From NCBI GenBank assembly GCA_963702535.1, contig CAVPDG010000007.1, forward strand, positions 4,949 through 68,948: DNA of 64,000 nucleotides, given 5' to 3'. This DNA comes from an uncultured Chloroflexia bacterium. GTDB lineage: Bacteria; Chloroflexota; Anaerolineae; Anaerolineales; UBA4823. Each line of letters opens with the position of its first letter. Position 1 is the first letter of the stretch. Position numbers and translations under genes: made by a program. Shown piece by piece: positions 19,658 to 46,622 of the stretch. The notes beneath the pieces are model-generated. The model saw only the letters and a list, made by a program, of their open reading frames with translations. It was not told where the DNA came from and did not search any database.

Positions 19658-19665
19658 GTCGAGCG

Positions 19666-22906: not shown

Positions 22907-22925
22907 CAACACCCGCAACGATTTG

Positions 22926-23044: not shown

Positions 23045-23056
23045 AAAGAGGACCAA

Positions 23057-24058: not shown

Positions 24059-24099
24059 CCATCAGCGGCAAAACCTGGCGGATGGCAAATTCTTCTGGA

Positions 24100-24126
24100 C
24101 ACGGATAACCACGGATACCACGGATA
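24100..24126 (+). repeat. Three direct copies of CACGGATA at 10- and 9-bp spacing
   Basis: CACGGATA at 24100-24107, 24110-24117 and 24119-24126, about 30 nt upstream of the opine-DH-family gene start. Confidence 0.7.
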
Positions 24127-24156
24127 AAAAGAAGAAAACATTGCACGGAGGTTGAA

Positions 24157-27798: not shown

Positions 27799-28702
27799 GC
27801 GTTTACGGCGTGGCAATCATCGGAGCGGGTCCAGCCGGGCTGGCAGCCGCCATCCAGCTTCAGCGCTACGGCATTGATGCGTTGCTGCTGGAGGCGGAAG
27901 CGGTCGGCGGGTTGCTGCGCAACGCCAACCTGGTGGAGAACTACCCCGGCTTCCCGCAGGGTATCCCTGGGATGCGAGCTGGCGCGCTTGTTCGCCGGGC
28001 AGCTCGACCAGCAGGGAGTGACCGTCACCTACGCTCGGGTGAGCGCAGTGAAGGACGAAGGCGATGCTTTCTGCCTGCAGAGCGACCGGGGCGCTTTTTC
28101 TGCCCGCATCCTGGTGATCGCCACGGGCAGCCAGGCGCTGACCTTGCAGGATTTCCCCATCCCCGAGGCGGCGAAGAGCAGGGTGCTGTACGAGATCCTG
28201 CCCGTGCTGGGTGTGGAGGGGCGGCGCTTCGCCATCGTGGGGGCGGGCGACCTGGCTTTCGATTACGCCCTCAACCTGGGCAAACGCAACGCCGTCACGA
28301 TCCTCAACCGGGGCAGCGAGACGCGCTGCCTGCCGCTGCTGCGCCAGCGAGCCGCAGACAACCCGCGAATTTCGTATAGGGAAAATACCTGGGTCGAAGG
28401 CGTGCGCCAGGCGCCGCAGGGCGAGCTGGAGCTCGCCTGCCGCAGCCCGCAGGGGGAGATTTCCATCGCCTGCGATTACCTGGTGGGGGCGATCGGGCGC
28501 AAGCCGCAGCTCGATTTTCTTTCAGAAGACTTCCTGCGTCACGCCGCCGGTTGGCAGCGGGAGGGCAGGCTTGTATCTCATTGGGGACGTGAAGAACCAG
28601 CAGTACCGCCAGGCATCCATCGCCATTGGGGATGGCGTGATGGCAGCCATGCAAATCCACCAGAGGAGCCATGAGCATGAACATCATCGCATCAACCGGT
28701 AA
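27795..28702 (+). pseudogene. FAD/NAD(P)-dependent pyridine-nucleotide oxidoreductase (thioredoxin-reductase-like), frame broken twice (GGG 27969-27971 and about 28555-28570)
   Basis: VAIIGAGPAGLAAAIQL...NYPGFPQGIPG | CELARLFAGQL...RFAIVGAGDLAFDYALNL... | GLYLIGDVKNQQYRQASIAIGDGVMAA. The GTG start overlaps the isochorismatase stop (GTGA). Confidence 0.8.
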
Positions 28703-29621
28703 GGAAGAGGTCGCTATCGTCTACATCGCCGAGTTTGGGGAGGGCAAGCGCATCGAGCTGGTCGAATCGCTGCAGCCGCCCATCCCACGCGAAGAGAAGT
28801 GGGTGCTGCTGGTCTCCTCCATGTTCGGCTGCCCGGTGGAGTGCATCATGTGCGATGCCGGCGGCTACTACCACGGCAAGCTGAGCAAAGACGAGCTCTT
28901 GGCGCAGATCGATTACCTGGTGTACAAGCGCTTCCCGGATGGGAACATCCCCTCCCGCCAGTTCAAGATCCAGTTCGCCCGCATGGGGGAGCCTTCGCTC
29001 AACCCGGCGGTGCTGGATGTGCTGGAGGAGCTGCCGCAGCGCTACCAGGCGCCCGGCTTGAAACCCTCCGTCTCCACCGTTGCGCCGTGCGGCACGAACC
29101 GCTTCTTCCGGCGGCTGCTCGATATAAAAAATGCGCTGTATTCCGGCGGCAATTTCCAGTTCCAGTTCTCGTTGCACACCACCGATCCCGCCCTGCGCGA
29201 CCAGATCATCCCGGTCAAGAAGTGGAGCTTCGACGAGATGGCGGAGTACGGCGAGCAGTTCTACGCCCCGGGCGACCTCAAGATCACGCTCAACTTCGCC
29301 CTGGCGGAGAGCTACCCGCTTGACCCGCAGGTGCTGCTGCGCACCTTCAACCCGCAGAAGTACCTGGTGAAGATCACGCCGCTCAACCCCACCTACAAAG
29401 CCTCGCGCAACAACTTGAATACCTATATCGACCCGCATGCCCAAGGCGCCGTTTACCCCAAGGTGCAGGCGCTGCAGGAGGCGGGCTATGATGTCATCGT
29501 CAGCATCGGCGAGGTGGAGGAGAATTACATCGGCAGCAACTGCGGGCAGTACCTGCGCAAGCACATGGAGTCCGCCGAGCCGCTGGGCAGCGGGTATACC
29601 TACCCGGTGCGGGAGATGTGA
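28671..29621 (+). CDS. Radical SAM protein with an RlmN/Cfr-like core
   Basis: CPVECIMC is a CxxxCxxC cluster motif. The order of blocks (LLVSSMFGCPVECIMC, FARMGEPSLNP, SVSTVAP, FQFSLHTTDP, KITPLNPT, IGSNCGQY) mirrors RlmN as I recall it (SSQVGC..C.FC, MGMGEPL, TVST.G, LAISLHA, NLIP.NP, AACGQL). Confidence 0.65.
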   Translation: MSMNIIASTGKEEVAIVYIAEFGEGKRIELVESLQPPIPREEKWVLLVSSMFGCPVECIMCDAGGYYHGKLSKDELLAQIDYLVYKRFPDGNIPSRQFKIQFARMGEPSLNPAVLDVLEELPQRYQAPGLKPSVSTVAPCGTNRFFRRLLDIKNALYSGGNFQFQFSLHTTDPALRDQIIPVKKWSFDEMAEYGEQFYAPGDLKITLNFALAESYPLDPQVLLRTFNPQKYLVKITPLNPTYKASRNNLNTYIDPHAQGAVYPKVQALQEAGYDVIVSIGEVEENYIGSNCGQYLRKHMESAEPLGSGYTYPVREM

Positions 29622-30775: not shown

Positions 30776-32110
30776 CTAGGTGACGATCACCTCCACGCCC
30801 AGCATCTGCCCGACCTGCTTCAATTCAGGGATGACGTTGCCGTAGGTGATGGCGTAGTGCTGGCTGGAGATGTTCTGCATGAAGGCTTCCACATCGCCAT
30901 CCATGGCGACATCCACAAACGGGTAGGTGGGGCAGCCGACCTCGTGGAAGGGAGGGGGCAGCTCTGCCATCCCGCTGGCGACGTGCAGCTTGAAGCCGCC
31001 TTTGCGGCTTCCCAGGCGCGCCAGTGTGACCGGACCCGTCTTGTAGGGCGAGCTGTTGAGCAATCCCTCATAAAGCGCCGTATGCTTGTTGATCAGCGGC
31101 TTGCCGTGGGCGTAGCTCAGCGGGGCGAAGCCGCAGGCGCCCCACAGGGTGTGGGTGGGCGTGGCGTTATGCAGGTCGCCGTAGCTGGTGGGCTCGCCGG
31201 TCAGGTAGTGCAGCAGGAGCTGCGAGACCACCAGGGGCACATCGCCCTCGCAGCTCGTCACGAATTCATCGCCCAGGATGGAGAGCGCCAGGCAGGGCGC
31301 CATGCCGAAGGTGCGCGATAGCTCGTACTGGCATTTGACCGTCAGGGCGTCCCAACGGTGCTCGCCGGCCAGCTCGCGGATGGCTTGCAGCATGCGCAGC
31401 GAGCGGCGGATATCCTTCTCAGCTACGTTTTCCCCTAACTGCCAGTTTGCGACCTGCGGCAGCGACTCCAGCGGCGGGTCTTCCGCTAGCTTGTTGAAAC
31501 GCGCCACGATCTCATACTGGTCCACCTGGTCGATCTCCGGACCGAGCTGGCTGCGCAATTGGGTGTGGTCGATGGTGCCGGTGTACATACCCATCGCAGC
31601 GTAGCCCAGCAGCCCGACGCGGGCGGTGGAGAGCGCCTGCACGGCGGCGGCCGAGCGCGCCAGGCGCTGCGTGCAGAGGCACACAGCCGGGTCGCCAGGC
31701 ATGCCGTAGGTGAACCAGAAGGTTGCGCCCATCTCTTCCAGTGTCTCGCGCAGCACGCCGGCGGCGGGCAGGGCGCCCAGGGTCAAGCCCACGCCGTCCT
31801 CGCTGTAAATTGTGTGGCTCCACAGCAGGATGGGGCGGTTAAAGAAAGGCTTCAACGTGGCGGTGAAGAGCGGCGCTTCGACCCAGCTCACCAGCAGGGC
31901 TACCAGCAAGTCGAAATCGGCTGTACGCAGGGAAGCCAGGGCTTTGGGAACATCCTCTGGGATGATGACGGGGGGCGTCGCGCTGACCTGCAAGCCGCAC
32001 TCGGCAAGGAAGGCAAGCGAGCTATCGATCTGGCGCTGGATATCGGCAGGAGGATAATCCGGATAAGCGAAGGGCACCACCTGCAGGCGCGGCAGAGACT
32101 GGCTTTTCAT
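30776..32110 (-). CDS. Short L-fucose/L-arabinose isomerase-family protein (FucI-like, paralog 1)
   Basis: 444 aa, clearly paralogous to 36666..38018 and 44893..46239. Shared blocks are VGLLGY/IGLFGY, LTVKCQYELS / LNVKCHYELS, SCEGD, YGD(L/I)H and HYA(I/V)(T/V)YG. Confidence 0.7.
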   Translation of the reverse strand: MKSQSLPRLQVVPFAYPDYPPADIQRQIDSSLAFLAECGLQVSATPPVIIPEDVPKALASLRTADFDLLVALLVSWVEAPLFTATLKPFFNRPILLWSHTIYSEDGVGLTLGALPAAGVLRETLEEMGATFWFTYGMPGDPAVCLCTQRLARSAAAVQALSTARVGLLGYAAMGMYTGTIDHTQLRSQLGPEIDQVDQYEIVARFNKLAEDPPLESLPQVANWQLGENVAEKDIRRSLRMLQAIRELAGEHRWDALTVKCQYELSRTFGMAPCLALSILGDEFVTSCEGDVPLVVSQLLLHYLTGEPTSYGDLHNATPTHTLWGACGFAPLSYAHGKPLINKHTALYEGLLNSSPYKTGPVTLARLGSRKGGFKLHVASGMAELPPPFHEVGCPTYPFVDVAMDGDVEAFMQNISSQHYAITYGNVIPELKQVGQMLGVEVIVT

Positions 32111-32196: not shown

Positions 32197-32225
32197 TTGA
32201 CAAGGGAAAGTGTTAATTCTATAAT
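32197..32225 (+). promoter_or_regulatory. Perfect consensus sigma70-type promoter upstream of the DeoR gene
   Basis: TTGACA (32197-32202), a 17-nt spacer, then TATAAT (32220-32225), inside an AT-rich divergent intergenic region. Further TTGACA/TTGACG hexamers lie at about 32248 and 32309. Confidence 0.55.
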
Positions 32226-32325
32226 CATTATACATTTCATTCGTAAACTTGACAACAATATTAAAACAAAAACAAGTACGAACAGGCGCCTGGGAAGCGC
32301 TTGCAAGTCTTGACGTGCTCAGTAG

Positions 32326-33154
32326 ATGACAATCACGGCAGAATCCCGGCGATCGGACATCCTGGAAGCGCTCATGGAAGAACGCTACCTGAAAGTAGCG
32401 GAGCTGAGCCAGCGCTTCGGCGTCTCCCAAATGTCCATCCGGCGGGATGTCTGCCAGCTCGAAGGGCAGGGGCTGGTGCGGCGCGTGCACGGCGGGCTGG
32501 TCGCCACGCCGCTCAGCCGCCTGGGGCTTGAGATCCCTGCCGGTTTCATTAGCACAGCTTCAAGAAGACAATCTGATCAAGGAAGAGATCGCGCGAGCCG
32601 CAGCCAGCCTGGTCGCGCCAGGCGACCACCTCATTTTCGATAGCGGAGAACTTTCCTATCTGGCTGCTTGCGCCCTATCCGGTGATCTGCTGGTGCGGGG
32701 CGACCTGGCTGCCATCACCAATTCGATACCGGTGGCGCTCGAGCTGGCGCCCTGGCAGGGGGTAGAGACCATCCTGCTGGGCGGCAAGTACCAGGCGACC
32801 AGCACGATGAGCCTGGTTGGGATGGATGCGCAGCGCGGGCTGGATGGTCTGCACGCCGATAAGATGTTCCTGACGCCGGCGGGGATTGCCTTCCAAGAGG
32901 GCATCCAGGTCTGGCCGAGAGCAGGTGAGGGTGAGCTGGCGCAGCACATGGTGGCGACATGCTCGCAAGTCATCCTGATGGCGACCGGCAATGTGATCGG
33001 ACCGGCGCTGCAGGGTAAAGGTCTGCAGCTCGGTGCAGGGCACATCCTGATAACGGGTGAAGATTGCCCACAGGAAGCCCTGGCTGCCCTCTCGGATGCC
33101 GATATGTATGTGATCCTGGTAAAACAAGCCTCAAGGAAGGAATTATGCCTGTAG
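32326..33154 (+). pseudogene. DeoR-family transcriptional regulator, frame broken once at CCC 32535-32537
   Basis: HTH part YLKVAELSQRFGVSQMSIRRDVCQLEGQGLVRRVHGG (ORF 32326..32643) joins the DeoR C-domain LQEDNLIKEEIARAAASLVAPGDHLIFDSG...KMFLTPAG (ORF 32447..33154). Confidence 0.8.
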
Positions 33155-34173
33155 GAGAGCACCTCGCCCGCGTGATGACCGCCCTGCATAGGGGACAGCC
33201 GGATCGCATCCCCTCCTTCGAGTGGGAGATCGACGAAAAGATCATCCAGGCGCTGACGCCTGGCGGTGATATCTACGATTTCATCGAGTGGGCAGACCTG
33301 GATGGGATTGCCATCTTTGCCGATAGCCGCAAGCGTTACCTCGACGAGGTGACCTACCTGGACGAGTGGGGGGTGACCCTGCGCAAGACGGAGGAGTACT
33401 ACCCCATCCCCATCGATGAGCCGATCAAGGACCCTGCCGACCTGGCTACGCTAAAGCCGCCCGACCCGTGCTCCGAGTGGCATTTCAAATCTCTGGCGGA
33501 AGCGGTGGAGCGCTTCAAGGGCAAGCGGGCGATCATCTTCCGCGTGCAGGATGCCTTCTCGATCCCACGCTACCTGCGCGGCACGGAGAACATTTTGATG
33601 GATTTTGTGCTCAACCCCGGGCTGCTGCGCGACCTGGTGGAGATTGGCGTGGAGTACAACTCGCGGTTGGCGCGCTGCGCCGTAGATCTGGGGGCAGACG
33701 CCATCTTCACCTCGGACGATTACGCCGACAACCGCGGCCCGATGATGTCGCCGCGCCACTTCCGCGAATTCTTGCTGCCCGGATTGCAACAGGTGGTCAA
33801 GGCGGTGCATGCCGCCGGGGTGCCGATGATCAAACACACGGACGGCAACATCATGCCCATCCTGGACGACATCATCCAGGCGGGGGTGGATTGCATCGAC
33901 CCCCTCGACCCGCTGGGTGGGATGAGCGTGCCGCTGGTGAAGGAGAAGTACGGCACGCGGGTGTGCCTGAAGGGCAATATCAACATCGGCGGGGCGCTCT
34001 CGCTCGGCACGCCGGACGAGGTGCGCCTCGAAACCCTGGCTTGCATCCAGGCGGGCAAGCCGGGCGGCGCATTCATCCTGTCGACATCGAACAGCATCAT
34101 GTCCTGCATTTTGCCTGAAAACTATGCAGCCATGATCGAGACATTACGGCAGTATGGGAGTTATGAGGGATGA
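33145..34173 (+). CDS. URO-D family protein (MT2/MtaA-like fold)
   Basis: Start at ATG 33145 (MPVGEHLARVMTAL...), with AAGGAAGG upstream. Typical URO-D blocks are RIPSFEW, AFSIPRYLRGTENILMDFVLNP, IFTSDDYADNRGPMMSP and MIKHTDGNI. The stop overlaps the MttB-like start (ATGA at 34170-34173). Confidence 0.75.
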   Translation: MPVGEHLARVMTALHRGQPDRIPSFEWEIDEKIIQALTPGGDIYDFIEWADLDGIAIFADSRKRYLDEVTYLDEWGVTLRKTEEYYPIPIDEPIKDPADLATLKPPDPCSEWHFKSLAEAVERFKGKRAIIFRVQDAFSIPRYLRGTENILMDFVLNPGLLRDLVEIGVEYNSRLARCAVDLGADAIFTSDDYADNRGPMMSPRHFREFLLPGLQQVVKAVHAAGVPMIKHTDGNIMPILDDIIQAGVDCIDPLDPLGGMSVPLVKEKYGTRVCLKGNINIGGALSLGTPDEVRLETLACIQAGKPGGAFILSTSNSIMSCILPENYAAMIETLRQYGSYEG

Positions 34174-35627
34174 TCGATTTTGAGCACAAGATCCAGCTTT
34201 TCACCAGCGCGGAGCGGGCGCAGATCCACGCCGCCTCGCTGGATATCCTTGCCGAGCCGGGCATGCGCATCGAGTCGCAAAGCCTGCGCCACGCGCTGCG
34301 CCTCGCCGGCGCGGCGGTGGATGACGAGCGCCGCCAGGTGCGCTTCCCCGCCAGCCTGGTGGAGGCGACCCTGGAGCAGATGAAAGCCAGCATTGCCGCC
34401 GGCAGGAAGCAGATCGTGCTGAACGGCGTGGTCGCATCGCTGACGCCGCGCTCGATGTGCCTCAAGTTCGGCGGGGCGTGCATCGAATACATGGACTGGA
34501 AGACCGGCGAGGTGCGCCTCCCCGCCCGCCAGGACCTGGTGGAGATGGTGCAGCTCGGCGAGGCGCTGCCGGAGGTGACCTTCGTCGGCAACCCGGTGGT
34601 GTACCTGAGCGAGGACGATGGCACGAAGATCGAACCGCGCATGCAGCGCGTCAAGACGGCGGCGCTGATCGCCCGCTACACCACCAAGGCAGGCTCGACG
34701 GAAGTATGGAACGCCGCCGAGCTGAAGTACCTCATGGAGCTGGGTGAGATCGTGCGCGGATCCCGGGCGGCTTACCTGGAGCGCCCGTGCTTCGTCACCG
34801 CCAAGGAAACGATCACCCCCTTGATCCTGGACGAGGCGGCTGGCGATGTGCTGCTGCTCCTGGCGCAGAACGACCTGCCGTGCGTCATCATCCCGATGCC
34901 CATCACGGGCACCTCCAGCCCGCTCAGCCTGGCGGCGAACGTCGCCCTGGGCAATGCCGAGATCATCGGCGCCTTCACCGCCATTCACGCCGCCTGCCCC
35001 GGCGCTAACCTGGTGGGCGGGGTGATCAGCGGCACGTTCAACATGCGCACCACCCAGGCGGTGTTTGCTTCGCCCGAATCCGTGCTGCAGGACCTGGGGC
35101 TGGCGGAGATCCACGAGCGCCTGTATGGCTTCGACTTCGGCGCCGGCGGCTATATCGACGCCAAGTACCCGGGGGCGCAGATCATGCTGGAGGTCTTCGC
35201 CCGCTTCTCGCTGCTGGCGCGCTCCGGGCGCTACAACGTGCCTGCCGGGCTGCTCAACAGCGGCAAGCGCTTCTCGCCGGTGCAAGCCATGCTGGATATC
35301 GAGGTCGAGCGCTGGATCGTGGAAGCCGGCAAGGGCATCCAGGTCTCGCCGGACAGCCTGCTGTTGGAACAGATCCGGCGGGTGGGCATCGGCGGGCACT
35401 CGCTGGCGGAGGATCACACGCTGGAGAACATGCGCAAGAACATCTGGTACCCACAGCTTATGGATCACACCAGCCCGGGTCTGGATCAGGAGCATGTTGG
35501 CGATATGGTCGCTGCGGCGGGTCGGCGGGTTGAGAAGGCGCTTTCACAGAGCGGGTTGTACGAAGCCGATTCTGCGAAGATCAAAGCCATCGACGCGGTG
35601 GTGCGCGCCGCGGAGAAGGAGCTGTAG
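34170..35627 (+). CDS. MttB-superfamily (trimethylamine methyltransferase-like, non-pyrrolysine) protein
   Basis: 485 aa. Length and blocks (FTSAERAQIHAASLDILAEPGMRIES..., PMPITGTSSPLSLAANVALGNAEII, MLDIEV) fit COG5598/MttB-type proteins such as quaternary-amine methyltransferases. There is no in-frame TAG. Confidence 0.7.
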   Translation: MIDFEHKIQLFTSAERAQIHAASLDILAEPGMRIESQSLRHALRLAGAAVDDERRQVRFPASLVEATLEQMKASIAAGRKQIVLNGVVASLTPRSMCLKFGGACIEYMDWKTGEVRLPARQDLVEMVQLGEALPEVTFVGNPVVYLSEDDGTKIEPRMQRVKTAALIARYTTKAGSTEVWNAAELKYLMELGEIVRGSRAAYLERPCFVTAKETITPLILDEAAGDVLLLLAQNDLPCVIIPMPITGTSSPLSLAANVALGNAEIIGAFTAIHAACPGANLVGGVISGTFNMRTTQAVFASPESVLQDLGLAEIHERLYGFDFGAGGYIDAKYPGAQIMLEVFARFSLLARSGRYNVPAGLLNSGKRFSPVQAMLDIEVERWIVEAGKGIQVSPDSLLLEQIRRVGIGGHSLAEDHTLENMRKNIWYPQLMDHTSPGLDQEHVGDMVAAAGRRVEKALSQSGLYEADSAKIKAIDAVVRAAEKEL

Positions 35628-35641
35628 AGAGGAGGTATTCT

Positions 35642-36646
35642 ATGAAAGATTGCCGCATCTCTGACCGCTGGACGCTCAACGGTCTGCAAACGATCGTCAT
35701 GGAGAACGAGCTGCTGCGCAGCAGCGTGCTGGTGGACCTGGGAGCGCGCATCCACGAGTTCATTTACAAGCCGCTCGACCGGGATTTCTTCTGGCATAAC
35801 CCGCGCATCGAGCCGCGCCCGCCGGTATTCCAGGCGGATATCGACGCCTGGCTGTCGGGCGGCATGGATGAAGCCATCCCCACCGGTCACCCATCTACCT
35901 ATAAGAACGAGCAGTACCCGTACATTGGCGAGGTGTGGTCCTTGCGCTGGGATTACGACATCTTGCAGCGCGGTCCGCAAGAGGTGGAGGTGCACCTTTG
36001 GCGCTACACACCCATCTCGCCGCTGCGCGTCGACCGCTGGATGCTGCTGCGCCGCGACGAGCCGCTGCTGCACATGCGCCATCGCGTGACGAACCTCTCC
36101 AGCGAAACTTTCGACTTCCTGTGGGGTTTACATCCTTGCTGGGATGTGCGCGAGACGACGCGCTTCGACATCCCCGCAGGCGAGATGCTGATCGAAAATT
36201 CAGCTCCCAACGATCGCCTTGGCGCCAAAGGCACGCGCTACCCGTGGCCCTTCGCAACGGAAGCCGCCACGGGTCGCCCCGTAGATGTGCGCCGGATGCC
36301 CCCCGCAAACGCCGGCACGGGAGAGTTCCAATTCGCCACCCAGCTCAACGCCGGCTGGCTGGCAGTGACCGATACCAGCATCAAGGCAGGCGCAGGGCTG
36401 GTTTTCCCCCATGAGATCTTCAAAGCTGCCTGGCTGTGGACCTGCGCCGGCAACTGGCGCGGCTATTACGTCGGCGCGCTGGAAGCCTGGACGGGCTACC
36501 CGCAGAAGCTGCATGACGCCGTGGATCACGGCGTGTTTTATTCGCTGCCCGGCAACCAGGTGGTGGAGTGTGAGACCGCCCTGCTGGCTTATCAAGGCGT
36601 CGGGAGTGTTAGCTATCTCGGCTTGGATGGGACCGTAAAAGAATAA
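35642..36646 (+). CDS. Galactose-mutarotase-like (aldose 1-epimerase superfamily) protein
   Basis: 334 aa, beta-rich. The LWGLHPCW and GALEAWTGYP blocks resemble mutarotase-like domains. The assignment is tentative. Confidence 0.45.
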   Translation: MKDCRISDRWTLNGLQTIVMENELLRSSVLVDLGARIHEFIYKPLDRDFFWHNPRIEPRPPVFQADIDAWLSGGMDEAIPTGHPSTYKNEQYPYIGEVWSLRWDYDILQRGPQEVEVHLWRYTPISPLRVDRWMLLRRDEPLLHMRHRVTNLSSETFDFLWGLHPCWDVRETTRFDIPAGEMLIENSAPNDRLGAKGTRYPWPFATEAATGRPVDVRRMPPANAGTGEFQFATQLNAGWLAVTDTSIKAGAGLVFPHEIFKAAWLWTCAGNWRGYYVGALEAWTGYPQKLHDAVDHGVFYSLPGNQVVECETALLAYQGVGSVSYLGLDGTVKE

Positions 36647-36665
36647 TCTACATGGAGGCATAAAG

Positions 36666-38018
36666 ATGAAACCCAAAGTCGTAATGGTGCCATTTGGCGA
36701 TCGCTTTTACCCGCAGGACCTGCTGGATTCGCTGATCGAGCGCAGCGTAGACATGCTCGCCGGGCTGGATTTCGACCTGGTGGTAACGCAGAAGGTCAAC
36801 AGCATCCCAGACGCCCAGGCGGTCGCCCGGCAGCTCGAGGAGACGCCCAGCGACCTGATCCTCGGCTTCATCTCCTGCTGGATGGAGCCGGTCAATTTCA
36901 TCACTGCATTGAAGAACATGTTTCACAAGCCGGTCATGCTGTGGAGCCTGGTGATGTTTCCCGCCGAAGAGGGCAGCGATGAGATGATCACCACCGGCGC
37001 TTTCGTGGCGGCAGCCGTGTTGCGCGAGACGATGGATGAGATGGGCGTGCAGCACAAGTTCACCTGGGGCATGCCGGAGAAGAAGGAAGTGCAGAAGGAG
37101 ATCGCCGACTACGCCCGCGTTGCCATGGCGAAACGCCGCCTCTCGGAGACGCGCATCGGGCTGTTCGGCTACCCGGCGCTGGGCATCTACACCGCCACCG
37201 CCGACCACGTCTCCCTGTGCCAGAAGATCGGTCCCGAGATCCACCACATGGACCAGTGGCTGATCATCAAGGGCATGGAAGAGGTGAGCGAGGCGGAAGC
37301 CGCGGAATTTGCCGACGATGTGCGCCGCCACTGCCGCATCGCCCCGGATGTGACCCAGGAGCTGCTGCTCAAGGGTGGGCGCATGGCGGCGACGCTGCGC
37401 AAGCTGGGGCGGGAGAACCAGTGCGACGCGCTGAATGTCAAGTGCCACTACGAGCTGTCCGAGATGTTCCAATTCACTGCCTGCGTGCCGCTCTCCTTCC
37501 TGAGCCGCGAGTTCGTGTGTAGCTGCGAAGGCGACCTGATGGCATCCGCCACACAGCTCATGCTGCACTACCTGACCGATAACCAGACCGTTTACGGCGA
37601 CATCCACGAGGTCTTCAGCGACCGGCTGACCTTCTCCTGCTGCGGGTTGAACCCCATCGGCATGTGCGACCCGTCGCGCTGCCTGATCTCGCGCTACAAC
37701 GCCGATTTCCAGGGCATCAGCAACTCCAGCCCCTACGTGTCCGGGCAGCGCGTCACCGTGGCGCGCCTGGCGGCGAAGGGCGATGACTACAAGATGCACA
37801 TCACCAGCGGTGTGACCACCGATACCTTCAACTGGCACGAAGTTAACTGCCCGCCGCCGCCGGCTACGGACGTGATCCTGGACGACGATGCGATGTGGTT
37901 TGCAAAGAACATCGCTTCCAACCACTACGGCATGGTGTACGGCGACGTGCGCAGCCAGCTCATCGACCTGTGCGAGATGCTGGGCGTGCGCGTGGTGACA
38001 TATCCGGGTAAAGGATAG
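36666..38018 (+). CDS. Short FucI-like isomerase-family protein (paralog 2)
   Basis: 450 aa. See the paralog blocks listed for 30776..32110. Confidence 0.7.
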   Translation: MKPKVVMVPFGDRFYPQDLLDSLIERSVDMLAGLDFDLVVTQKVNSIPDAQAVARQLEETPSDLILGFISCWMEPVNFITALKNMFHKPVMLWSLVMFPAEEGSDEMITTGAFVAAAVLRETMDEMGVQHKFTWGMPEKKEVQKEIADYARVAMAKRRLSETRIGLFGYPALGIYTATADHVSLCQKIGPEIHHMDQWLIIKGMEEVSEAEAAEFADDVRRHCRIAPDVTQELLLKGGRMAATLRKLGRENQCDALNVKCHYELSEMFQFTACVPLSFLSREFVCSCEGDLMASATQLMLHYLTDNQTVYGDIHEVFSDRLTFSCCGLNPIGMCDPSRCLISRYNADFQGISNSSPYVSGQRVTVARLAAKGDDYKMHITSGVTTDTFNWHEVNCPPPPATDVILDDDAMWFAKNIASNHYGMVYGDVRSQLIDLCEMLGVRVVTYPGKG

Positions 38019-38030
38019 GAGATCTGCTGC

Positions 38031-39569
38031 ATGGGCGATGAACTATTCCTCGGGTTGGATATCGGCATCTCTACGGTCAAGGTAGCCCTGTTCACCGGGC
38101 AGGGCGAGCTGGTGGCGCTGGAATCCGACGAGTACATGGTGATGCCGGAAGGCGAAGTGGTGGAGGCTGACCCGGAGATCTACTGGGCGCCCATGGCACG
38201 TTCCATCCGCAAGCTGCTGCAAAATTGGGGCGGCGATCCGCAGCGCATCGCCGCGGTTTCCATCTCCAGCCACGGGGAGACGATCTTCCCCATGCGGGCG
38301 GATGGCAAGCCGGTGCGCAAAGCCATCAACTGGATGGACAACCGCTCGCAGCTCGAATCGGACGAGCTGCTGGAGAGCCTGGGTAGCCAGAAGGTGCTGG
38401 AGATCACCGGGCAGCCGGAGGTGGGTCCCATCTGGCCCGTGACCAAATACCGCTGGATGAGCAAGCACGAGCCGGAGCTGGTAAAAGAGACCGCCAGCTT
38501 CCTGCTGCCGGAGGATTACATCCTCTTCCGCCTGAGCGGGCAGTTTGCCGGCGAATACACGCTGTGGTCTTCATCGCTGGTCTTCGACATCCGCCAGAAG
38601 CGCCTGTCGGACGAGCTGCTGGCGTTCGCCGGCATCTCGCCGGCGCAGATCCCCGCCATTTACCCGGCGGGCACGGCTTTTGGCAATATTTCAGCAGCTT
38701 GTGCGGCTGAAACCGGTCTGAGCGTGAAAACCCGCGTGGTGACCGGCGCCCTGGACCAGGTGTGCGCCGCCATCGGCGCCGGCAACGTGGCGCCGGGGAT
38801 GATCACCGAGAGCACCGGGTCGGTGCTGGCGCTGGTGGCTTCGATCCGCGAGCCGATCTTCGATAACGTGACCCGCCTGCCCTGCCACATCCACGCCGTG
38901 CCGGACACGTACTGCATGCTGCCCTGGAACCCGACGGGCGGCATGACCTTGAAGTGGTTCAAGGACACTTTTGCGCCCGACCTGACCCGCCAGGCGCAGG
39001 AGGAAGGCAAGGATGTTTACGACCTGCTGAGCATCCCGGCAGAGGGCGTCAAGCCGGGCAGCGATGGGCTGATCATGCTGCCGCACCTGGAAGGCGCCTT
39101 CTTCCCGGAGTTCGATACACAGGTGCGGGCAGTGTTCTTCGGCTTCACTCTCAGCCACACGCGGGCGCACTTTACCCGGGCGATCATGGAAGCCATCGCC
39201 TACATGCTGCGCCGCGACCTGGAAGGGCTGCAAAAGCTGGGCGTGGGGTCCAGCGAGCTGCGCGTGCTGGGCGGCGGAGCGAAGAGCCGCCTGTGGTCGC
39301 AGATCAAGGCGGACGTGTGCAATACACCGGTGATTATGCCCAGCCATCGCGAGGCGGCTGTGATGGGCGCCGCCATGCTGGCAGCCGTGGGCGTGGGCTA
39401 TTACCCGGATATCCCCTCGGCAGCCAGGGTGATGGCTCGCCCGGGCACGCGCCTGGAGCCGGACCCCGCCAACCGCCGCCTGTACGACGCGACGTTTGAC
39501 CTGTATGTCTCGATCTACGATGCGCTCAAGCCGCTCTTCCCCAGGCGCAGCGAAATCCTAAAAATGTAA
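38031..39569 (+). CDS. FGGY-family carbohydrate kinase (xylulokinase-like)
   Basis: 512 aa with LGLDIGISTVKVALF, VLGGGAKSRLWSQIKADV and GAAMLAAVGVG. Confidence 0.85.
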   Translation: MGDELFLGLDIGISTVKVALFTGQGELVALESDEYMVMPEGEVVEADPEIYWAPMARSIRKLLQNWGGDPQRIAAVSISSHGETIFPMRADGKPVRKAINWMDNRSQLESDELLESLGSQKVLEITGQPEVGPIWPVTKYRWMSKHEPELVKETASFLLPEDYILFRLSGQFAGEYTLWSSSLVFDIRQKRLSDELLAFAGISPAQIPAIYPAGTAFGNISAACAAETGLSVKTRVVTGALDQVCAAIGAGNVAPGMITESTGSVLALVASIREPIFDNVTRLPCHIHAVPDTYCMLPWNPTGGMTLKWFKDTFAPDLTRQAQEEGKDVYDLLSIPAEGVKPGSDGLIMLPHLEGAFFPEFDTQVRAVFFGFTLSHTRAHFTRAIMEAIAYMLRRDLEGLQKLGVGSSELRVLGGGAKSRLWSQIKADVCNTPVIMPSHREAAVMGAAMLAAVGVGYYPDIPSAARVMARPGTRLEPDPANRRLYDATFDLYVSIYDALKPLFPRRSEILKM

Positions 39570-39585: not shown

Positions 39586-40344
39586 GTGACCGACCCATCC
39601 AAGCCGTTAGCAGAAATACACGATGAAGCCCTGCGGGTAGCCGAGGCGCTGGATCAAACCCACGCCCCGCTGCGCCTGCTCGGCGGGGCAGCCATCTGGC
39701 TGCGCTGCCCGAGCGCCGAGCACCCCCTGCTGCGCCGCAACTACGCCGACCTGGATTTCATCTGCCTGCGCTCTGCTGGACCGGATACCAAGCGCTTCCT
39801 CGTCGGGCTGGGCTACGAGGCGGATAAGTATTTCAATTCCCTGCACGGGCGCAGCCGCTTGCTGTTCCACGACCCGCTAAACCAGCGCCAGGTGGACGTC
39901 CTGTTCGACGAGATGCTGATGTGCCACCGGCTGGACTTCCGCAAGCGCATCAGCGTCGACCCGCGCACGCTGTCCCTGGCAGACCTGCTGCTCACCAAGT
40001 TGCAGATCGTCGAGACCAACCCCAAGGACATGTCCGACATGGCGACGATCCTCTTCGACCATGCCATCGGCGAACGGGACGGCGACGATATCAACGCGGC
40101 TTATATCGCCGGTCTGACTGCCAACGATTGGGGGCTGTACCGCACCATCCAGCTCAACCTGGAGGCTGTGCGCCAGCATGCCGGTTCCCTGCCGCAGGTG
40201 GGTCCGTTTGCAATCAATGACCAGGTTGAGGCGCTGTGGGCGATGATCGAAGCGGCGCCGAAATCATTGAAGTGGAAGATGCGCGCCCAGGTGGGCGACC
40301 GGGTGAAATGGTACGAATTACCGGAAGAGGTACGCAGGAGCTGA
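39586..40344 (+). CDS. Nucleotidyltransferase-fold protein, function unknown
   Basis: GTG start. LRLLGGAAIWL...YADLDFIC fits the minimal NTase G[GS]...DxD pattern. The rest is helical and not recognisable to me. Confidence 0.45.
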   Translation: MTDPSKPLAEIHDEALRVAEALDQTHAPLRLLGGAAIWLRCPSAEHPLLRRNYADLDFICLRSAGPDTKRFLVGLGYEADKYFNSLHGRSRLLFHDPLNQRQVDVLFDEMLMCHRLDFRKRISVDPRTLSLADLLLTKLQIVETNPKDMSDMATILFDHAIGERDGDDINAAYIAGLTANDWGLYRTIQLNLEAVRQHAGSLPQVGPFAINDQVEALWAMIEAAPKSLKWKMRAQVGDRVKWYELPEEVRRS

Positions 40345-40358
40345 GAAAGGGACGCATC

Positions 40359-41323
40359 ATGATCTTTAAGAAACAAAACGTTACCCGTTTATTTTTCGCT
40401 ACAGATATTCACGGATCGGAGCGTTTGTTCCGTAAGTTTATCAACGGCGCCAAGGTCTATGGCGTCCAGGTGCTCGTGCTGGGCGGCGATATCACCGGTA
40501 AGGCGCTGGTGCCGTGCATACACCAGGGCGGAAAATACACCTGCCAGTTAATGGGCAGGGAGTACAGCGCCAGCACCCAGGCGGAACTGGACGAGGTGTT
40601 CCGGCTGATCAACTACAACGGTTTTTACCCGCGCGTGATGGAGCCGGATGAGGTGATGCGCATGCAAAGCGATCACGCCTACCATGAAGAGGTTTTCCAG
40701 GATACGCTGCTTTCCTCGGTGAGGAGCTGGCTGGATGTGGCGCAGGAGAAGCTCAAGGGTACCCGATTGCCCTGTACATGATGCCCGGCAATGACGACCC
40801 GCCGCAAGTGGTCCAGCTCATCAACGAATCGCAGGTAGCGGTCTGCGCGGAAGGGCGCTGCGTGCAGCTCGACGAGACGCACGAGATGATCTCCATGGGC
40901 TATTCCAACCCCACGCCCTGGCACACCGAGCGCGAGCTTCCCGAGGAAGAGCTATTGGAGAAGCTGGAGGCGATGGCGCCGCTGGTCAAAGCGCCGCAGA
41001 ACCTGGTGGTCAACTTCCACGCCCCACCCTACGATAGCCGCCTGGACACCGCACCAGAGCTCAAGGGAGATTTTCAGATCAACACCCAGATGGGGCAGCC
41101 GGTTCTGGTGCCGGTGGGCAGCAAATCGGTGCGGGCTTATATCGAGAAACACCAGCCCTTGTTAGGGCTGCACGGGCACGTTCATGAATCCGATGGCATG
41201 GCCCGCATTGGCCGTACGTTGTGCATCAATCCTGGCAGCGCATACACGGACGGGATGCTGTGCGGAGCAATCGTTGGACTCAAGAAGGACGGATTGGATA
41301 CTTACCAGATGGTGCGCGGATAG
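40359..41323 (+). pseudogene. Calcineurin-like metallophosphoesterase, frame broken once at CCC 40762-40764
   Basis: Start at MIFKKQNVTRLFFATDIHGSE. The motifs are D-x-H, GGDITGK, then (second frame) LYMMPGNDD, FHAPPY and LHGHVHES. Adding one C restores KGTPIALYMMPGNDD. Confidence 0.8.
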
Positions 41324-41450: not shown

Positions 41451-43091
41451 ATGGCTACTACGTCAACTGATCAACCTCCCAGCGCACCCGGCGGGCTTTA
41501 CCTACGCAAAGCCACCGGTCTGGTGCGCGAGATCACGATGAGCAATATCATCGTGTACAACATGCTGCCGGCGGTCCCTGGCTTGATCCTGGCGTTCTCG
41601 CTGTTCTGGATTCTGGGCGCCTTCCCCGGCGTAAATATGATCCTGGGCATGGTGATCGCGTTCGTGCTGGGGGCGTTCATCGCCACGGCTTTCGGTCTGC
41701 TGGCGGTGGCGATGCCGCGCACGGGCGGCGATTACATCCTGGTCAGCCGCACCCTGCACCCTGCGCTGGGCATGGTTAGCAGCATCAGCCTGATGTTCTC
41801 CGGCTTCCTGTCTATCGGCTACTGGGGCTGGGCGTGGACTGTCTTCGGCCTGGTGCCAGCCTTTATGGTGGTCGGCTCGATCACCGGCAACGCCACGTTG
41901 CTGGCGATCGGAACAGCCCTGGGTGGCAAGGGCGCAATGCTGATCGTCGGTCTGATCGCCATCGGCATCTGCGTGGCGATGCTCTCGGTGGGCATGCGCA
42001 CAACCATGAAAGTGCAGATGGTGTTGTGGTGGGTCGCCTTCGGCGGTCTGGCGCTGATGGCGATCATCCTGCTCTTCAACAGCCAGGCAAGCTTTGTCCA
42101 AGCATTTAACGCTTACGCCCAGCCATATACGGGGGCGGCAAACTCATACCAGTACATGATTGATCAAGCGGCTGCCGCCGGCATGTCCTGGCCCGGGACT
42201 TATTCGCTGGGTCCCACCCTGGCTGCCGTCGGCGCTTTGCTGACTTTCGGCATGTGGTCCTGGTGGTCGGTACATATGTCCGGCGAGATCAAGGGCGGCG
42301 CCACCCGCAAGCAGTGGTACGCTATCCTGTGGGCAACCGTGATCCAGTACACGATCTTCATCGTCATGACCCTGCTGCTCTACAAGACGGTCGGACAGCA
42401 GTTCATTGCTTCTTTGAACTACCTGAGCGCTGCTAATCCTGCCGCGTACGCCCTGCCGTCGCCGCCCTACCTGGTGCTTTTGACCAGCGTTATGCCGAGC
42501 GGCTTTATACTGCCGTTCCTCATCTCTTTCTCGTTCATTTGTTGGCTGCCGCTGGTGCACTATATCCAGTTCGTCCAGCCGATCCGCGCCTTCTTTGCTA
42601 TGGCGTTCGACCGCGTTGCCCCGGCAAAGCTGGCGGATGTGAACGAGCGCACCCATGCCCCGATCACGGGCTTGGTTGTCTGCACGGTCATCGGCATCGT
42701 ATGCCTGATCTGGGCTATCTTCTCGCCCAGCTTCATGACCGTGATCGTCATTGCCGGTCTGTTCGGCATCCCGCCCATCACGCTGGTTGGTATCTCAGCC
42801 ATCGTGTTCCCATACCGTCTCAAGGATCTGTACAAGACTTCCGCCGCCAAGCTGGAGGTGTTGGGCATCCCGCTCTTGGTGATTGCCGGTGTTGTCTCGG
42901 TGCTGGCTGAGGTTCTCTACGGCTATATCGCGTACAAATACTTGCTGCCTCAATCCCAGTGGGTAAACGCCACCATCATCACAGTGGGTGTCATCGTCAT
43001 TTCCGCGGTGCTGTATTTTGTGGCTTACGCGGTGCGCAAGCGTGAAGGGATCGACCTGGGCTTGGTCTTCAAAGAGCTGCCGCCCGAATAG
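41451..43091 (+). CDS. APC-superfamily (amino acid/polyamine/organocation) permease
   Basis: 546 aa with about 12-14 TM segments. AVAMPRTGGDYILVSR is the typical APC signature context. Confidence 0.8.
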   Translation: MATTSTDQPPSAPGGLYLRKATGLVREITMSNIIVYNMLPAVPGLILAFSLFWILGAFPGVNMILGMVIAFVLGAFIATAFGLLAVAMPRTGGDYILVSRTLHPALGMVSSISLMFSGFLSIGYWGWAWTVFGLVPAFMVVGSITGNATLLAIGTALGGKGAMLIVGLIAIGICVAMLSVGMRTTMKVQMVLWWVAFGGLALMAIILLFNSQASFVQAFNAYAQPYTGAANSYQYMIDQAAAAGMSWPGTYSLGPTLAAVGALLTFGMWSWWSVHMSGEIKGGATRKQWYAILWATVIQYTIFIVMTLLLYKTVGQQFIASLNYLSAANPAAYALPSPPYLVLLTSVMPSGFILPFLISFSFICWLPLVHYIQFVQPIRAFFAMAFDRVAPAKLADVNERTHAPITGLVVCTVIGIVCLIWAIFSPSFMTVIVIAGLFGIPPITLVGISAIVFPYRLKDLYKTSAAKLEVLGIPLLVIAGVVSVLAEVLYGYIAYKYLLPQSQWVNATIITVGVIVISAVLYFVAYAVRKREGIDLGLVFKELPPE

Positions 43092-43169: not shown

Positions 43170-43949
43170 ATGGGCACCCTGGCAGACCGCAGGCGGACGG
43201 AAATACTGGCGCTGCTGGACAGCCAGCGCAGCCTGAGCCTGGGCGAGCTGAGCGTACAGCTCGGCGTGCCCGAAGCGACGCTGCGCAAAGACCTGCCGCT
43301 GCTGGCTGAGCTGGGGCTGCTCAAACTGCTGAGCGACGGGGCGGCAGCCATCCCACACTACCGCATCTCCCGCGAGCGCCAGGAGCGCATGCAGCTGAAC
43401 CGGGAGAAGAAGGAGCGCATCGGGGAGGCGGCTGCCGGCTTGATCCACCCCGGCGAGAGTGTCATCCTGGATGCCGGCACCACCCCGCTGCAGGTAGCCA
43501 GCCACATTTGTTCCGACCTGCGCCTTGCGGGTGGGCTGACCATGGTTACATCCTCTTTAAGAATTTTCCGTGAGATCGGCGCCTGCCCCGGCATCCGCAC
43601 GCACCTGCTAGGGGGCATCTACCTGCCCGAATACGAATCGCTGGCAGGTCCGCAGACTGTGGAGACTCTGAAAGGCATCCGCGCCGATAAAGTCTTCCTC
43701 GGGTCGGATGGTATCACGCTCTCGAACGGCGTCACCACCTCCGACATCCTGGAAGCGGACGTGGACCGTTACATCATCCAGGCTTCCCGGCAGGTGATCG
43801 TCGTCGCCGATTCGAGCAAGATCGGCGTGATCGGGCTGGTGACCCTGCTGCAGATCGAGCAGGTGGACACCCTGGTCACCGACCGGGACGCCTCGCCCGA
43901 GTTCGTCGACCTGGTTGAGAGCCTGGGTGTGCAAGTGATCCTGGCTTGA
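43170..43949 (+). CDS. DeoR-family transcriptional regulator
   Basis: 259 aa with an HTH plus DeoR C-domain (ILDAGTTPLQVA, KVFLGSDG, VVADSSKIG). Confidence 0.85.
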   Translation: MGTLADRRRTEILALLDSQRSLSLGELSVQLGVPEATLRKDLPLLAELGLLKLLSDGAAAIPHYRISRERQERMQLNREKKERIGEAAAGLIHPGESVILDAGTTPLQVASHICSDLRLAGGLTMVTSSLRIFREIGACPGIRTHLLGGIYLPEYESLAGPQTVETLKGIRADKVFLGSDGITLSNGVTTSDILEADVDRYIIQASRQVIVVADSSKIGVIGLVTLLQIEQVDTLVTDRDASPEFVDLVESLGVQVILA

Positions 43950-44051: not shown

Positions 44052-44869
44052 ATGCCAACAACCGGAGAAAAAATCAGATTGAGCCGCCTGTTCTCAGGCG
44101 GGCAGAACGCCGTCGTCGTCGCCATTGACCACGGTCTGTACTTTGGACCGCTGCCGGGGATGATCAACCTGCCGCAGGTGGTCAAATCACTGGGCGGGGC
44201 GGACGCCGTGCTGATGGCGCCTGGGGCTGCGGCGCACTGCTCCAGCATCTTCGAGCAGCGCGGCGCGCCGCCGCTGGTGCTGCGCCTGAATTTTGCATCG
44301 AATTATCTCTCGCCCTGGAAATACACACACTCGCACAGCGTGCCCATGCTCTCGGTGGCCGAGGCCGTAGCGCAGGGAGCGGATATCGTTCTGGCGAGCA
44401 TGACGTTACAGAATCCGGACGAGAAAGAAGACGCTAAAAATGTGGAGCTATTGGCGCATTTCATCAACGAAAAGCGCCTGCTGGGCATCCCGTTGATCGG
44501 CGAGGTTTTCCCCACCGGTGGTGATGACGCTAATCCTGCCGACCTGCACGAGCAGGTGCTCACCGGCTGCCGCATGATGGCGGAGCTGGGCGCCGATGCG
44601 GTCAAGACCTTCTACACCGGCGAGAAGTTCGAAGAAGTGACCGCCGGCACGCCGATCCCCATCCTGGCGCTGGGCGCCAAGAAGACCCCGCTGGAGAGGG
44701 ACGCCCTGCGCCTGGCGGCGACGGCGGTGCGCGCCGGGCGCGCGGCGTGGTCTTCGGCAGGAACGTGGTCCAGGCGAAGGAGCCGGAGCGCTTCCTGGAA
44801 GCGCTCAAGGAAGTGGTCAAGGTCCACGCCGACCCGGATAAGACGGCAGCCAAGTTCGGATTACAATGA
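44052..44869 (+). pseudogene. DhnA/FbaB-family class I aldolase (paralog of 9520..10356), frame broken once at GGG 44736-44738
   Basis: IRLSRLFSGGQNAVVVAIDHG...GADAVKTFYTGEKF...AVRAG, then in a second frame ARGVVFGRNVVQAKEPERFLEALKEVVKVHADPDKTAAKFGLQ-stop (TGA 44867-44869). Compare ARGVVFGRNVIQADDP in the paralog. Confidence 0.85.
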
Positions 44870-44892
44870 GAATAACCCTGGAGGGTATCTGC

Positions 44893-46239: not shown

Positions 46240-46272
46240 TCAACCTCGGTTTGGTTCCACAATCGCGAGGGT

Positions 46273-46323
46273 GAAAATTTGAAGACTGCGTGCGGCGGAG
46301 CCGGACGCAGTCTTCAAATTTTC
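46273..46323. terminator. 19-bp perfect inverted repeat at the high-GC / low-GC boundary
   Basis: GAAAATTTGAAGACTGCGT (46273-46291), a 13-nt loop, then ACGCAGTCTTCAAATTTTC (46305-46323). It begins 34 nt after the isomerase stop. Confidence 0.5.
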
Positions 46324-46344
46324 GTAACTACTCAGTCCCCTATG

Positions 46345-46530
46345 CAGCAAAAAAGGTGGAACGTAAGGCTTACCAACCACTGCCTTGTAAAGCACATCCA
46401 ATACGGGCTGACCATTTTTTACGAGCCGTGGAGATGTAACTGCGAATATGGCAGAAAACCTTTCCCCCTCCTCAGTCTGAAAACCACCTGACACCTTTTG
46501 CTCCACCTTTGAGACTGCCAGCAAAAAGTG
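46345..46530 (-). mobile_element. Degraded C-terminal remnant of an IS66-family-like transposase
   Basis: ...KVEQKVSGGFQTEEGERFSAIFAVTSPRLVKNGQPVLDVLYKAVVGKPYVPPFL resembles, from memory, the IS66-type C-terminus (...K(V/I)SGCFRS.EGA..F..IRSY(I/L)ST.RK.G........L..G.P). No catalytic domain is present upstream. Confidence 0.4.
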
Positions 46531-46622
46531 GTCGAAAAACGAGGTGGCAGCAATTCGGCTGCAACCGCTTGTTAAGTATGATTTATGGCTATAAGACCCA
46601 CAAACGGGATAATATAATGTGG

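Follow-up and report, generated by a model that had tools for sequence, protein, structure and literature searches.

Corrinoid-dependent methyl transfer offers the closest described parallels to the locus analysed here, an operon in a 64-kb stretch (64,000 nt; hereafter the window) of the genome of an uncultured Chloroflexia bacterium (contig CAVPDG010000007.1), in which a protein of the MttB superfamily and one of the URO-D superfamily are encoded amidst sugar isomerases, a sugar kinase and an aldolase. To our knowledge, most of the thousands of MttB homologues without pyrrolysine (Pyl) have no known substrate. The bacterial quaternary-amine systems (MtgB-MtgC-MtgA; MtpB, MtcB and MtyB with MtqC-MtqA; and MthB-MthC-MthA-MthK of Eubacterium limosum) have, like the window, a TIM barrel of this non-Pyl kind. 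MtpB, MtcB and MtyB, three characterised MttB-family enzymes of E. limosum, share one corrinoid protein (PMC12155760), and therefore, in our reading, the gene for a methyltransferase 1 (MT1) need not adjoin, and may sit far from, that of its corrinoid protein. MthB accepts only phosphocholine, a kinase product, and hence a kinase step can precede demethylation (PMC12155760). In contrast to these systems, the window has no local corrinoid protein, tetrahydrofolate (THF) methyltransferase or activator, and the module is found in operons of sugar isomerases, kinases, aldolases and glycosidases rather than in a one-carbon (C1)/acetogenic context.

The trimethylamine (TMA):coenzyme M (CoM) system of methanogens, MttB-MttC-MtbA, likewise pairs an MttB fold with a URO-D fold, and the best structural matches of the two window proteins are MttB itself and MtaA, a methylcobalamin:CoM methyltransferase. 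The window differs from it in having tyrosine in place of pyrrolysine, in lacking MttC and in having a URO-D protein without the thiol-activating His-x-Cys...Cys zinc site; moreover, its hosts are fermentative bacteria. The UroD superfamily further includes O-, S- and halide-demethylases (PMC10418091). These systems, made up of MT I, a corrinoid protein, MT II and an activator, share with the window the URO-D fold and a diversification into many paralogues; however, in the window there is no adjacent corrinoid protein, MT II or activator, and the neighbours are sugar enzymes instead of genes for aromatic compounds.

The remaining genes recall the routes for 6-deoxy and 6-substituted hexoses (FucI/FucK/FucA, L-rhamnose and the sulfo-Embden-Meyerhof-Parnas (sulfo-EMP) route with SftI), which share conversion of an aldose to a ketose, an FGGY-type kinase and an aldolase yielding dihydroxyacetone phosphate (DHAP). 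The models closest to the window isomerases are those of SftI and AraA, with all scores far below the equivalog cut-offs. Unlike in the fucose and rhamnose routes, the aldolase is of the DhnA-type class I and not a class II FucA/RhaD, and beyond any of these routes the module adds the MttB and URO-D proteins and, in relatives, an aminotransferase and a GFO dehydrogenase. The P450 that demethylates 6-O-methyl-D-galactose in marine bacteria would serve the same purpose, namely unmasking a methylated sugar before its catabolism, but it is oxygen-dependent and belongs to an unrelated family; it was the only carbohydrate demethylase returned by our full-text literature search, which found no anaerobic counterpart (PMC6292453). 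The same search yielded no description of the cluster, of MttB or URO-D proteins in sugar operons, or of anaerobic sugar demethylation, in line with the proposal of an earlier note, made from the letters of this DNA, that the genes form an undescribed candidate module. The mlp clusters of Kountz and Balskus, with MtaA-like proteins linked to methyl-sulfur metabolism, were considered and set aside as a different system.

Taken as a whole, the module resembles an isomerase-kinase-aldolase route of the fucose or sulfoquinovose kind to which a front end of corrinoid methyltransferases has been fused. The interpretation that we favour, tentatively and with somewhat less than even confidence, is that it serves the catabolism of a methylated sugar or amino-sugar through a corrinoid-type demethylation, with the corrinoid partner usually encoded elsewhere. 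Its gene content and packing are summarised in Table 1, where coordinates are positions within the window and "L" numbers, as in the text, label the related metagenome loci or contigs that were compared. The open reading frames (ORFs) bear out the run of DeoR, URO-D, MttB, mutarotase-like, FucI-like and FGGY genes up to 39569 that the earlier note had recognised, and also its observation, read directly from the sequence, that the stop of the URO-D gene and the start of the MttB gene share an ATGA. The unit does not end there, as that note had it, but reaches 46239, taking in c32, c25, an APC permease, a second DeoR regulator, the aldolase and a third FucI-like gene; a second related cluster also lies in the window. 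The plus-strand run is tightly packed, with intergenic gaps of 12-19 bp that continue through c32 and c25. It is preceded by a divergent isomerase gene whose product is 37% identical to its paralogue at 36666, and the predicted promoters between them match the consensus at 12 of 12 positions on the plus strand (TTGACA-17-TATAAT) and at 11 of 12 on the minus strand (TTGTCA-17-TATAAT). The mutarotase-like call of the earlier note is borne out by the homologues of that protein, while the protein itself drew no match in a Pfam search.

The product of the MttB-type gene matches PF06253 with 165.5 bits (gathering cut-off 25) over residues 8-477, and retains the MttB scaffold at full length (a profile score of 198 bits to MttB). 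Its AlphaFold model (predicted local distance difference test score, pLDDT, of 85) superposes on MttB, MtgB and a Sinorhizobium homologue with template modelling (TM) scores of 0.78-0.81 (0.81 to MttB 7xcl, 0.80 to 9yce and 2qne and 0.78 to 4yyc). By profile and modelled fold, it is a TIM-barrel member of the MttB superfamily. It falls short of MttB sensu stricto (TIGR02369, 229.6 bits against an equivalog cut-off of 525), and its identity to the characterised enzymes MttB and MtgB amounts to 20-24%, setting it apart from the quaternary-amine systems too. Where MttB has Pyl334, the gene has neither an in-frame stop nor a UAG codon but encodes Tyr328, a residue invariant across the clade, and the protein is thus non-Pyl as the earlier note had claimed. 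A tyrosine at this position was rejected as a marker of the clade, being widespread in intermediate MttB relatives; the clade motifs are KFGGAC, TEVWN and PCF[VI]TAKE. The invariant KFGGAC loop and G365 of the clade fall on G110-T111 and G372, through which MttB touches the corrin ring of its corrinoid (PMC9842639). The segments that correspond to these corrinoid-contact loops of MttB are among the most conserved of the clade.

The URO-D protein matches PF01208 with 115.6 bits (cut-off 23.9), and its model (pLDDT 94) finds MtaA (4ay7) as the best solved match at a TM score of 0.78, followed by UroD structures at about 0.75; both sequence and predicted fold place it in the URO-D superfamily, as the earlier note had assigned it. 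It lies outside the MT2 enzymes proper (MT2, methyltransferase 2; TIGR01463 for MtaA/CmuA, 78.9 bits against 235.4) and outside HemE (TIGR01464, 26.8 bits against an equivalog cut-off of 303), with only the C-terminal half aligning to UroD structures. Where MtaA has its zinc motif HICGN, the window protein reads HTDGN (within KHTDGN), the third cysteine is likewise absent (STSNS segment), and H231, D233, G234 and N235 are invariant. A canonical thiol-methylating MT2 is accordingly unlikely, as had been suggested.

The further suggestion that this motif signals an unusual chemistry is weakened by our comparisons. URO-D proteins with H-[ST]-D-G and SSxNS motifs, which the window protein shares with these uncharacterised relatives, are encoded directly upstream of corrinoid proteins in four unrelated metagenome loci (L042, L043, L044 and L103), and score no better on the MtaA/CmuA models than the window protein, while the MtaA-like HxC...C type forms a group apart from the H-x-D type. 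As judged from these sequences, H-x-D marks non-thiol URO-D members that keep company with corrinoid proteins; since they commonly adjoin such proteins, the motif argues only against a thiol-methylating MT2 and not against corrinoid chemistry. In the four loci (L042 6332-8248, L043 1787-3598, L044 8725-10624 and L103 96-1842), a URO-D protein of the LHSDGR/SSGNS type stands immediately upstream of an MtgC-like corrinoid protein, and the locus often holds an HxC-type URO-D gene as well; the impression is of a widespread set of MT1, corrinoid protein and MT2, to which we assign no substrate.

The sugar enzymes likewise show relatedness at the family level. Among the NCBIfam models, that of the sulfoquinovose isomerase SftI fits the FucI-like isomerases best, yet at 95-113 bits it stays far under its cut-off of 700; the FucI model gives less than 18 bits (cut-off 775) and Fucose_iso_C 25-32 bits (cut-off 29.3), and the profile scores thus relate these isomerases to FucI and SftI as families only. 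The aldolase, with 123-150 bits on the ADH-synthase, LsrF and FbaB models against cut-offs of 241-430, clearly belongs by its profile matches to the DhnA-type class I family, at a level that singles out no subfamily. The enzymes of the module stand outside MttB sensu stricto, MtgB, MtaA/MtbA, HemE, FucI and SftI, while belonging by sequence and fold to the wider superfamilies.

The gene neighbourhood is conserved well beyond the window. The exact sequence of the window MttB protein has no database record, and relatives at 97%, 90% and 80% identity were used in its place. In 185,579 species genomes scanned by sequence pattern, the MttB clade turned up at 34 loci, which belong without exception to uncultured bacteria and span Chloroflexota, Actinomycetota, Lentisphaerota/Victivallales, Planctomycetota, Spirochaetota and Bacillota. 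Some 260 clusters at 90% identity were retrieved, and at 50% identity about 16 clusters stand clearly apart from the remaining superfamily by their higher scores. When all ORFs of the clade loci were clustered, the MttB gene was found to share its contig, across 33 distinct species-level contigs, with a FucI-like isomerase in 19, a DhnA aldolase in 19, an FGGY kinase in 13, a URO-D protein in 12, a class-III aminotransferase in 10, a GFO/IDH/MocA dehydrogenase in 10 and a glycoside hydrolase of family 4 (GH4) in eight. The commonest identifiable immediate neighbours are DhnA (10), FucI (eight), GH4 (eight) and URO-D (six), and independent Pfam-annotated contigs give the same gene set. The same queries against 80 control loci centred on corrinoid proteins returned no FucI-like gene, one DhnA and one FGGY gene. 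In many loci the module is flanked by GH4, GH38-like, GH29/95/97 and sulfatase genes. We also observed the MttB clade in two Victivallales loci (L026, L030) and a Christensenellaceae locus (L029) beside very large glycosidase-like proteins, including some with GH38-like alpha-mannosidase N-termini, with a cupin and LacI/GntR regulators nearby.

The counts on the 33 contigs, against zero or one in the 80 control loci, exclude chance adjacency. They also bear on the view that the MttB-like gene encodes an ordinary betaine or quaternary-amine methyltransferase that sits next to the sugar genes incidentally and is regulated independently of them. An APC permease of organocation type in the cluster would suit such an enzyme, as would L007, where a permease, an MttB gene and a corrinoid protein occur with no sugar genes within 15 kb. 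Yet the association with FucI-like, DhnA and FGGY genes extends over six phyla, the genes are joined by the short gaps and the ATGA overlap, the clade is as distant from the characterised enzymes as noted above and groups with none of the characterised betaine methyltransferases, and the glycine-betaine ligands of MtgB are absent from it (see below). The conservation data largely refute this view, leaving it close to excluded and, in our estimate, very improbable.

The MttB and URO-D genes are directly adjacent in L004, L005, L017, L027, L029, L035, L038 and the P0027 contig. This repeated adjacency and the ATGA overlap could also be accounted for by a self-contained pair, in which MttB would be the MT1 and URO-D the MT2, working on a free or tightly bound cobamide and passing the methyl group to an O- or N-nucleophile at the His/Asp site. 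Such a pair would mirror the MttB and MtbA of methanogens minus MttC, and a section heading of a study on MtgB refers to free cobalamin as a methyl acceptor for MtgB variants (PMC13080624). We consider it improbable: only 12 of the 33 contigs have a URO-D gene and a system devoid of a corrinoid protein has no known in vivo precedent, though sequence by itself does not separate such a pair from the demethylation module that we favour. URO-D relatives also occur with the aminotransferase, GFO, FGGY and DhnA genes but without MttB, and MttB occurs without URO-D. The core of the module is therefore the trio of kinase, aldolase and isomerase with one or both of the methyltransferase-family barrels. 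The sugar loci carry diverged paralogues of both (URO-D in five or more subtypes, MttB in as many as three copies), a pattern that, going by these sequences, is expected of substrate-specific methyltransferases. Three MttB and four URO-D genes lie on one contig in L029/L035.

We infer the chemistry, order of steps and substrate class of the module as follows. The starting compound would be a substituted sugar set free from glycans, a methylated sugar or amino-sugar being the likeliest, and would enter via the APC permease, or via sugar-type ATP-binding cassette (ABC) systems in relatives. The MttB-clade and H-x-D URO-D proteins would act as substrate-specific methyltransferases that move methyl groups onto, or via, a Co(I) corrinoid, whose protein, activator and final methyl acceptor would usually be encoded elsewhere in the genome. 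The freed sugar might then be anomerised by the mutarotase-like protein and converted from aldose to ketose by the FucI/AraA-like isomerase; the FGGY kinase would phosphorylate the ketose and the DhnA-type class I aldolase cleave the product to DHAP and an aldehyde. In many relatives, the class-III aminotransferase and the GFO/IDH/MocA dehydrogenase may convert an amino position to a hydroxyl, and the divergent promoters would be controlled by the DeoR regulators. The aminotransferase, GFO dehydrogenase and GH4 of the relatives have only generic matches (GABA/acetylornithine type, levoglucosan-dehydrogenase-like and AglA-like, respectively), from which no substrate can be deduced. Rhizopine and O-methyl-inositols, Amadori compounds and opines, methylthio-sugars (by analogy to the DHAP shunt), glycosyl-choline and trimethylammonio sugars were also considered as substrates and not adopted for lack of evidence.

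The corrinoid partners, on which this scheme depends, are found only occasionally. The three components expected with an MT1 (a corrinoid protein, a THF or CoM methyltransferase and an activator) are absent from the window: a Pfam sweep of all its major ORFs found no B12-binding, RamA (DUF4445) or pterin-binding/MtrH domain, and a tblastn search with a genuine corrinoid protein returned nothing from the 64 kb, in agreement with the earlier note as regards the corrinoid protein and the activator. The use that the note made of this absence as a sign of unusual chemistry is weakened by two loci. In L123, the contig of L017, whose MttB protein is 80% identical to that of the window and whose gene order is the same, a protein with B12-binding_2 and B12-binding domains is encoded between the DhnA aldolase and an FGGY gene. 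In L007, an APC permease and the MttB gene are followed by pyruvate dehydrogenase (PDH)-like E1/E2 genes and, 3.7 kb downstream of MttB, by a gene for a 211-aa corrinoid protein with the DxHxxG..SxL..GG signature. We observed that in L007 (3541-9373; a Chloroflexi metagenome-assembled genome) the trio that precedes the MttB gene (c32, c25 and the APC permease) is that of the window, the permease adjoining MttB, while after MttB a fused PDH/acetoin-dehydrogenase-like E1 alpha-beta, an E2 and the corrinoid protein replace the sugar genes.

Several observations weigh against the interpretation as a demethylation module. L007 and L123 are the only two of about 38 related loci with a corrinoid protein within 10 kb of the MttB gene; none was found in the other 36 by the DxHxxG..SxL..GG pattern and tblastn, which divergent or His-off forms could escape. 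In none of the loci did we recognise an activator like RamA or a methyl-accepting enzyme of the THF or CoM type, the profile scans having covered a minority of the locus ORFs. Where a module has spread between phyla, an obligatory partner would be expected to travel along. In a reverse test, 80 metagenome loci were fetched around homologues of the L007 corrinoid protein (the control set used above), and none had this MttB clade; the usual partners of the L007-type family are MttB and URO-D proteins of other, distant types. The adjacencies in L007 and L123 could hence be coincidence in corrinoid-rich Chloroflexota. We know of no methyl ether or sugar among the substrates of characterised MttB-family enzymes, all of which are TMA or small quaternary amines. 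MttB Tyr364 has no equivalent in the clade. The glycine-betaine ligands of MtgB are Y97, R312, H348 and F356 (PMC13080624). In the clade, Gly/Ala stands in place of R312, Val/Phe in place of H348 and the invariant G365 in place of F356, with the Y97 region unaligned; as far as this alignment goes, the set is not conserved. Finally, with each barrel occurring in the absence of the other, MttB and URO-D need not act as a pair.

Some of these observations would be explained if both TIM barrels had been recruited to corrinoid-independent chemistry on a sugar or sugar phosphate other than methyl transfer, such as epimerisation, dehydration, decarboxylation or a C-N/C-O lyase reaction. The rarity of corrinoid proteins and the want of an activator and acceptor, the lost Zn-thiolate site of MT2 in the URO-D protein, the altered substrate ligands of MtgB and MttB, and the occurrence of each family alone with the kinase and aldolase, like an ordinary pathway enzyme, are all consistent with this possibility, and the UroD superfamily already has a cofactor-free decarboxylase. 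Demethylation and such a recruitment are the two roles that the earlier note had proposed. We regard the latter as the main rival and a serious one, though less likely than the demethylation module: no MttB-superfamily member other than a methyltransferase is known, the syntenic L123 cluster includes a corrinoid protein, genes for URO-D proteins of the H-x-D type typically neighbour those for corrinoid proteins, and the loops that in MttB contact the corrinoid are among the most conserved parts of the clade (PMC9842639).

If the module does carry out demethylation, it would be the anaerobic counterpart of the P450, it would add a new substrate class (sugars) to the MttB superfamily, and it would explain the use of methylated glycans by fermentative Chloroflexota, Planctomycetota, Lentisphaerota and Spirochaetota in sediments and soils. 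A bolder form of this interpretation, which we put forward as a rather doubtful proposal, is that anaerobic demethylation of carbohydrates has its first enzymes in the MttB-clade and H-x-D URO-D proteins, which would act on O- or N-methyl groups of methylated sugars and amino-sugars in uncultured glycan degraders, perhaps paired without a dedicated corrinoid protein. Should they prove to be enzymes other than methyltransferases, the MttB fold would for the first time be seen to depart in function from corrinoid chemistry. In both cases a correction would follow for the blanket annotations of these genes as "trimethylamine methyltransferase" and "uroporphyrinogen decarboxylase", which can mislead metagenomic inference on methylamine cycling. 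The conserved context of transporters, glycosidases, isomerases, kinases and aldolases is unusually informative for an MttB clade; it thereby narrows the search for the substrate to sugar-like compounds and makes it experimentally approachable.

Table 1. Features of the operon and of the second related cluster in the window
Feature	Position	Strand	Remarks
FucI/AraA-like short isomerase	30776-32110	-	divergent; Fucose_iso_C 31.9 bits (cut-off 29.3); SftI model 113 bits (cut-off 700)
Back-to-back sigma-70-like predicted promoters	32197-32255	both	within 216-bp divergent intergenic region; consensus match only
DeoR-family regulator	32326-33154	+	HTH_DeoR in ORF 32326-32643, DeoRC in ORF 32447-33154; split by +1 indel near 32550
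URO-D superfamily protein, KHTDGN/STSNS type	33145-34173	+	PF01208, E = 3e-33
Non-Pyl MttB-superfamily protein, distinct clade	34170-35627	+	PF06253, E = 1.5e-48
Galactose-mutarotase-like protein	35642-36646	+	homologues carry PF01263 (Aldose_epim), PF14486 (DUF4432) or PF17128 (DUF5107)
FucI/AraA-like short isomerase	36666-38018	+	Fucose_iso_C 25 bits; SftI model 99 bits (cut-off 700)
FGGY sugar kinase	38031-39569	+	FGGY_N and FGGY_C both match; XylB model 320 bits (cut-off 380)
Conserved protein c32	39586-40344	+	sub-threshold NTP_transf_5 match only; syntenic in L004, L005, L007, L017, L122
Conserved protein c25, possibly metallophosphoesterase	40356-41323	+	two ORFs in different frames; frameshift near 40780
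APC-superfamily (amino acid/organocation) permease	41451-43091	+	AA_permease_2 and AA_permease matches
Second DeoR regulator	43170-43949	+	ORF; groups in DeoR cluster
DhnA-type class I aldolase (ADH-synthase/LsrF/FbaB family)	44052-44900	+	NF005556 123 bits; C-terminal reading probably indel-disturbed
Third FucI-like isomerase	44866-46239	+	SftI model 95 bits; L123 has corrinoid protein at corresponding position
Second related cluster, whole	~1-14400	-	Pfam/profile matches; no MttB gene visible, one could lie beyond left edge
URO-D, cut by window end	1-603	-	second cluster
URO-D, WHCDGN type	721-1923	-	second cluster
AraA-like isomerase	1939-3342	-	second cluster
FGGY	3355-4854	-	second cluster
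Two ABC permeases	4978-6671	-	second cluster
Substrate-binding protein (SBP)	6889-8406	-	second cluster
Amidohydro_2	8483-9523	-	second cluster
DhnA aldolase	9520-10401	-	second cluster
Class-III aminotransferase, split	10458-11403	-	second cluster
Zinc-dependent alcohol dehydrogenase (Zn-ADH)	11846-12868	-	second cluster
SIS protein	12950-13594	-	second cluster
DeoR	13591-14362	-	second cluster

The first DeoR regulator is present, as the earlier note had it, though not intact: its frameshift is a one-base insertion relative to the intact gene of L004, a 97% identical strain. Because several other window genes are broken in the same way, the split genes are probably assembly indels. Genes are split between frames at about 32550, 10458-11403, 15916-17185, 40236-41323 and 44052-44900, and the contigs L004, L017 and L122 show the same pattern, which suggests indel errors of long-read assembly rather than pseudogenes. 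The c25 orthologue in L123 is a 323-aa protein with a faint Metallophos_3 match. A search with Rfam at gathering thresholds over the window and seven related loci found no riboswitch or other regulatory RNA, the only hits being two tRNAs.

Between the two sugar clusters (15051-25242) lies an apparent amine/opine-type module. It comprises a GntR/FCD regulator, a Liv-type ABC transporter with a split Peripla_BP_6 gene, an APH/choline-kinase-like phosphotransferase, an uncharacterised 376-aa protein, an ornithine cyclodeaminase/mu-crystallin protein and a protein of the octopine/nopaline-dehydrogenase family. Further along, a 316-aa ORF at 28671-29621 has a cysteine motif (CPVECIMCD) reminiscent of radical-SAM enzymes, with no Pfam match at E <= 1e-4. 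Right after the third FucI-like gene, the G+C content falls from about 0.62 to 0.48-0.51 over a segment (46240-52126) with genes for a TerB/zinc-ribbon protein, a GFO dehydrogenase, a SecDF-head-like protein, a tetratricopeptide repeat (TPR)/zinc-ribbon protein and a DDE transposase (51122-52126). This segment may be an insertion or rearrangement at the place where L123 has the corrinoid protein and another FGGY gene. Near the right end (54355-63586) is a further sugar/amino-sugar unit with a GNAT protein, a GFO/IDH/MocA dehydrogenase, a 536-aa DegT/DnrJ/EryC1 aminotransferase and an AraC regulator, followed by a DeoR regulator, an FGGY kinase and a sugar SBP.

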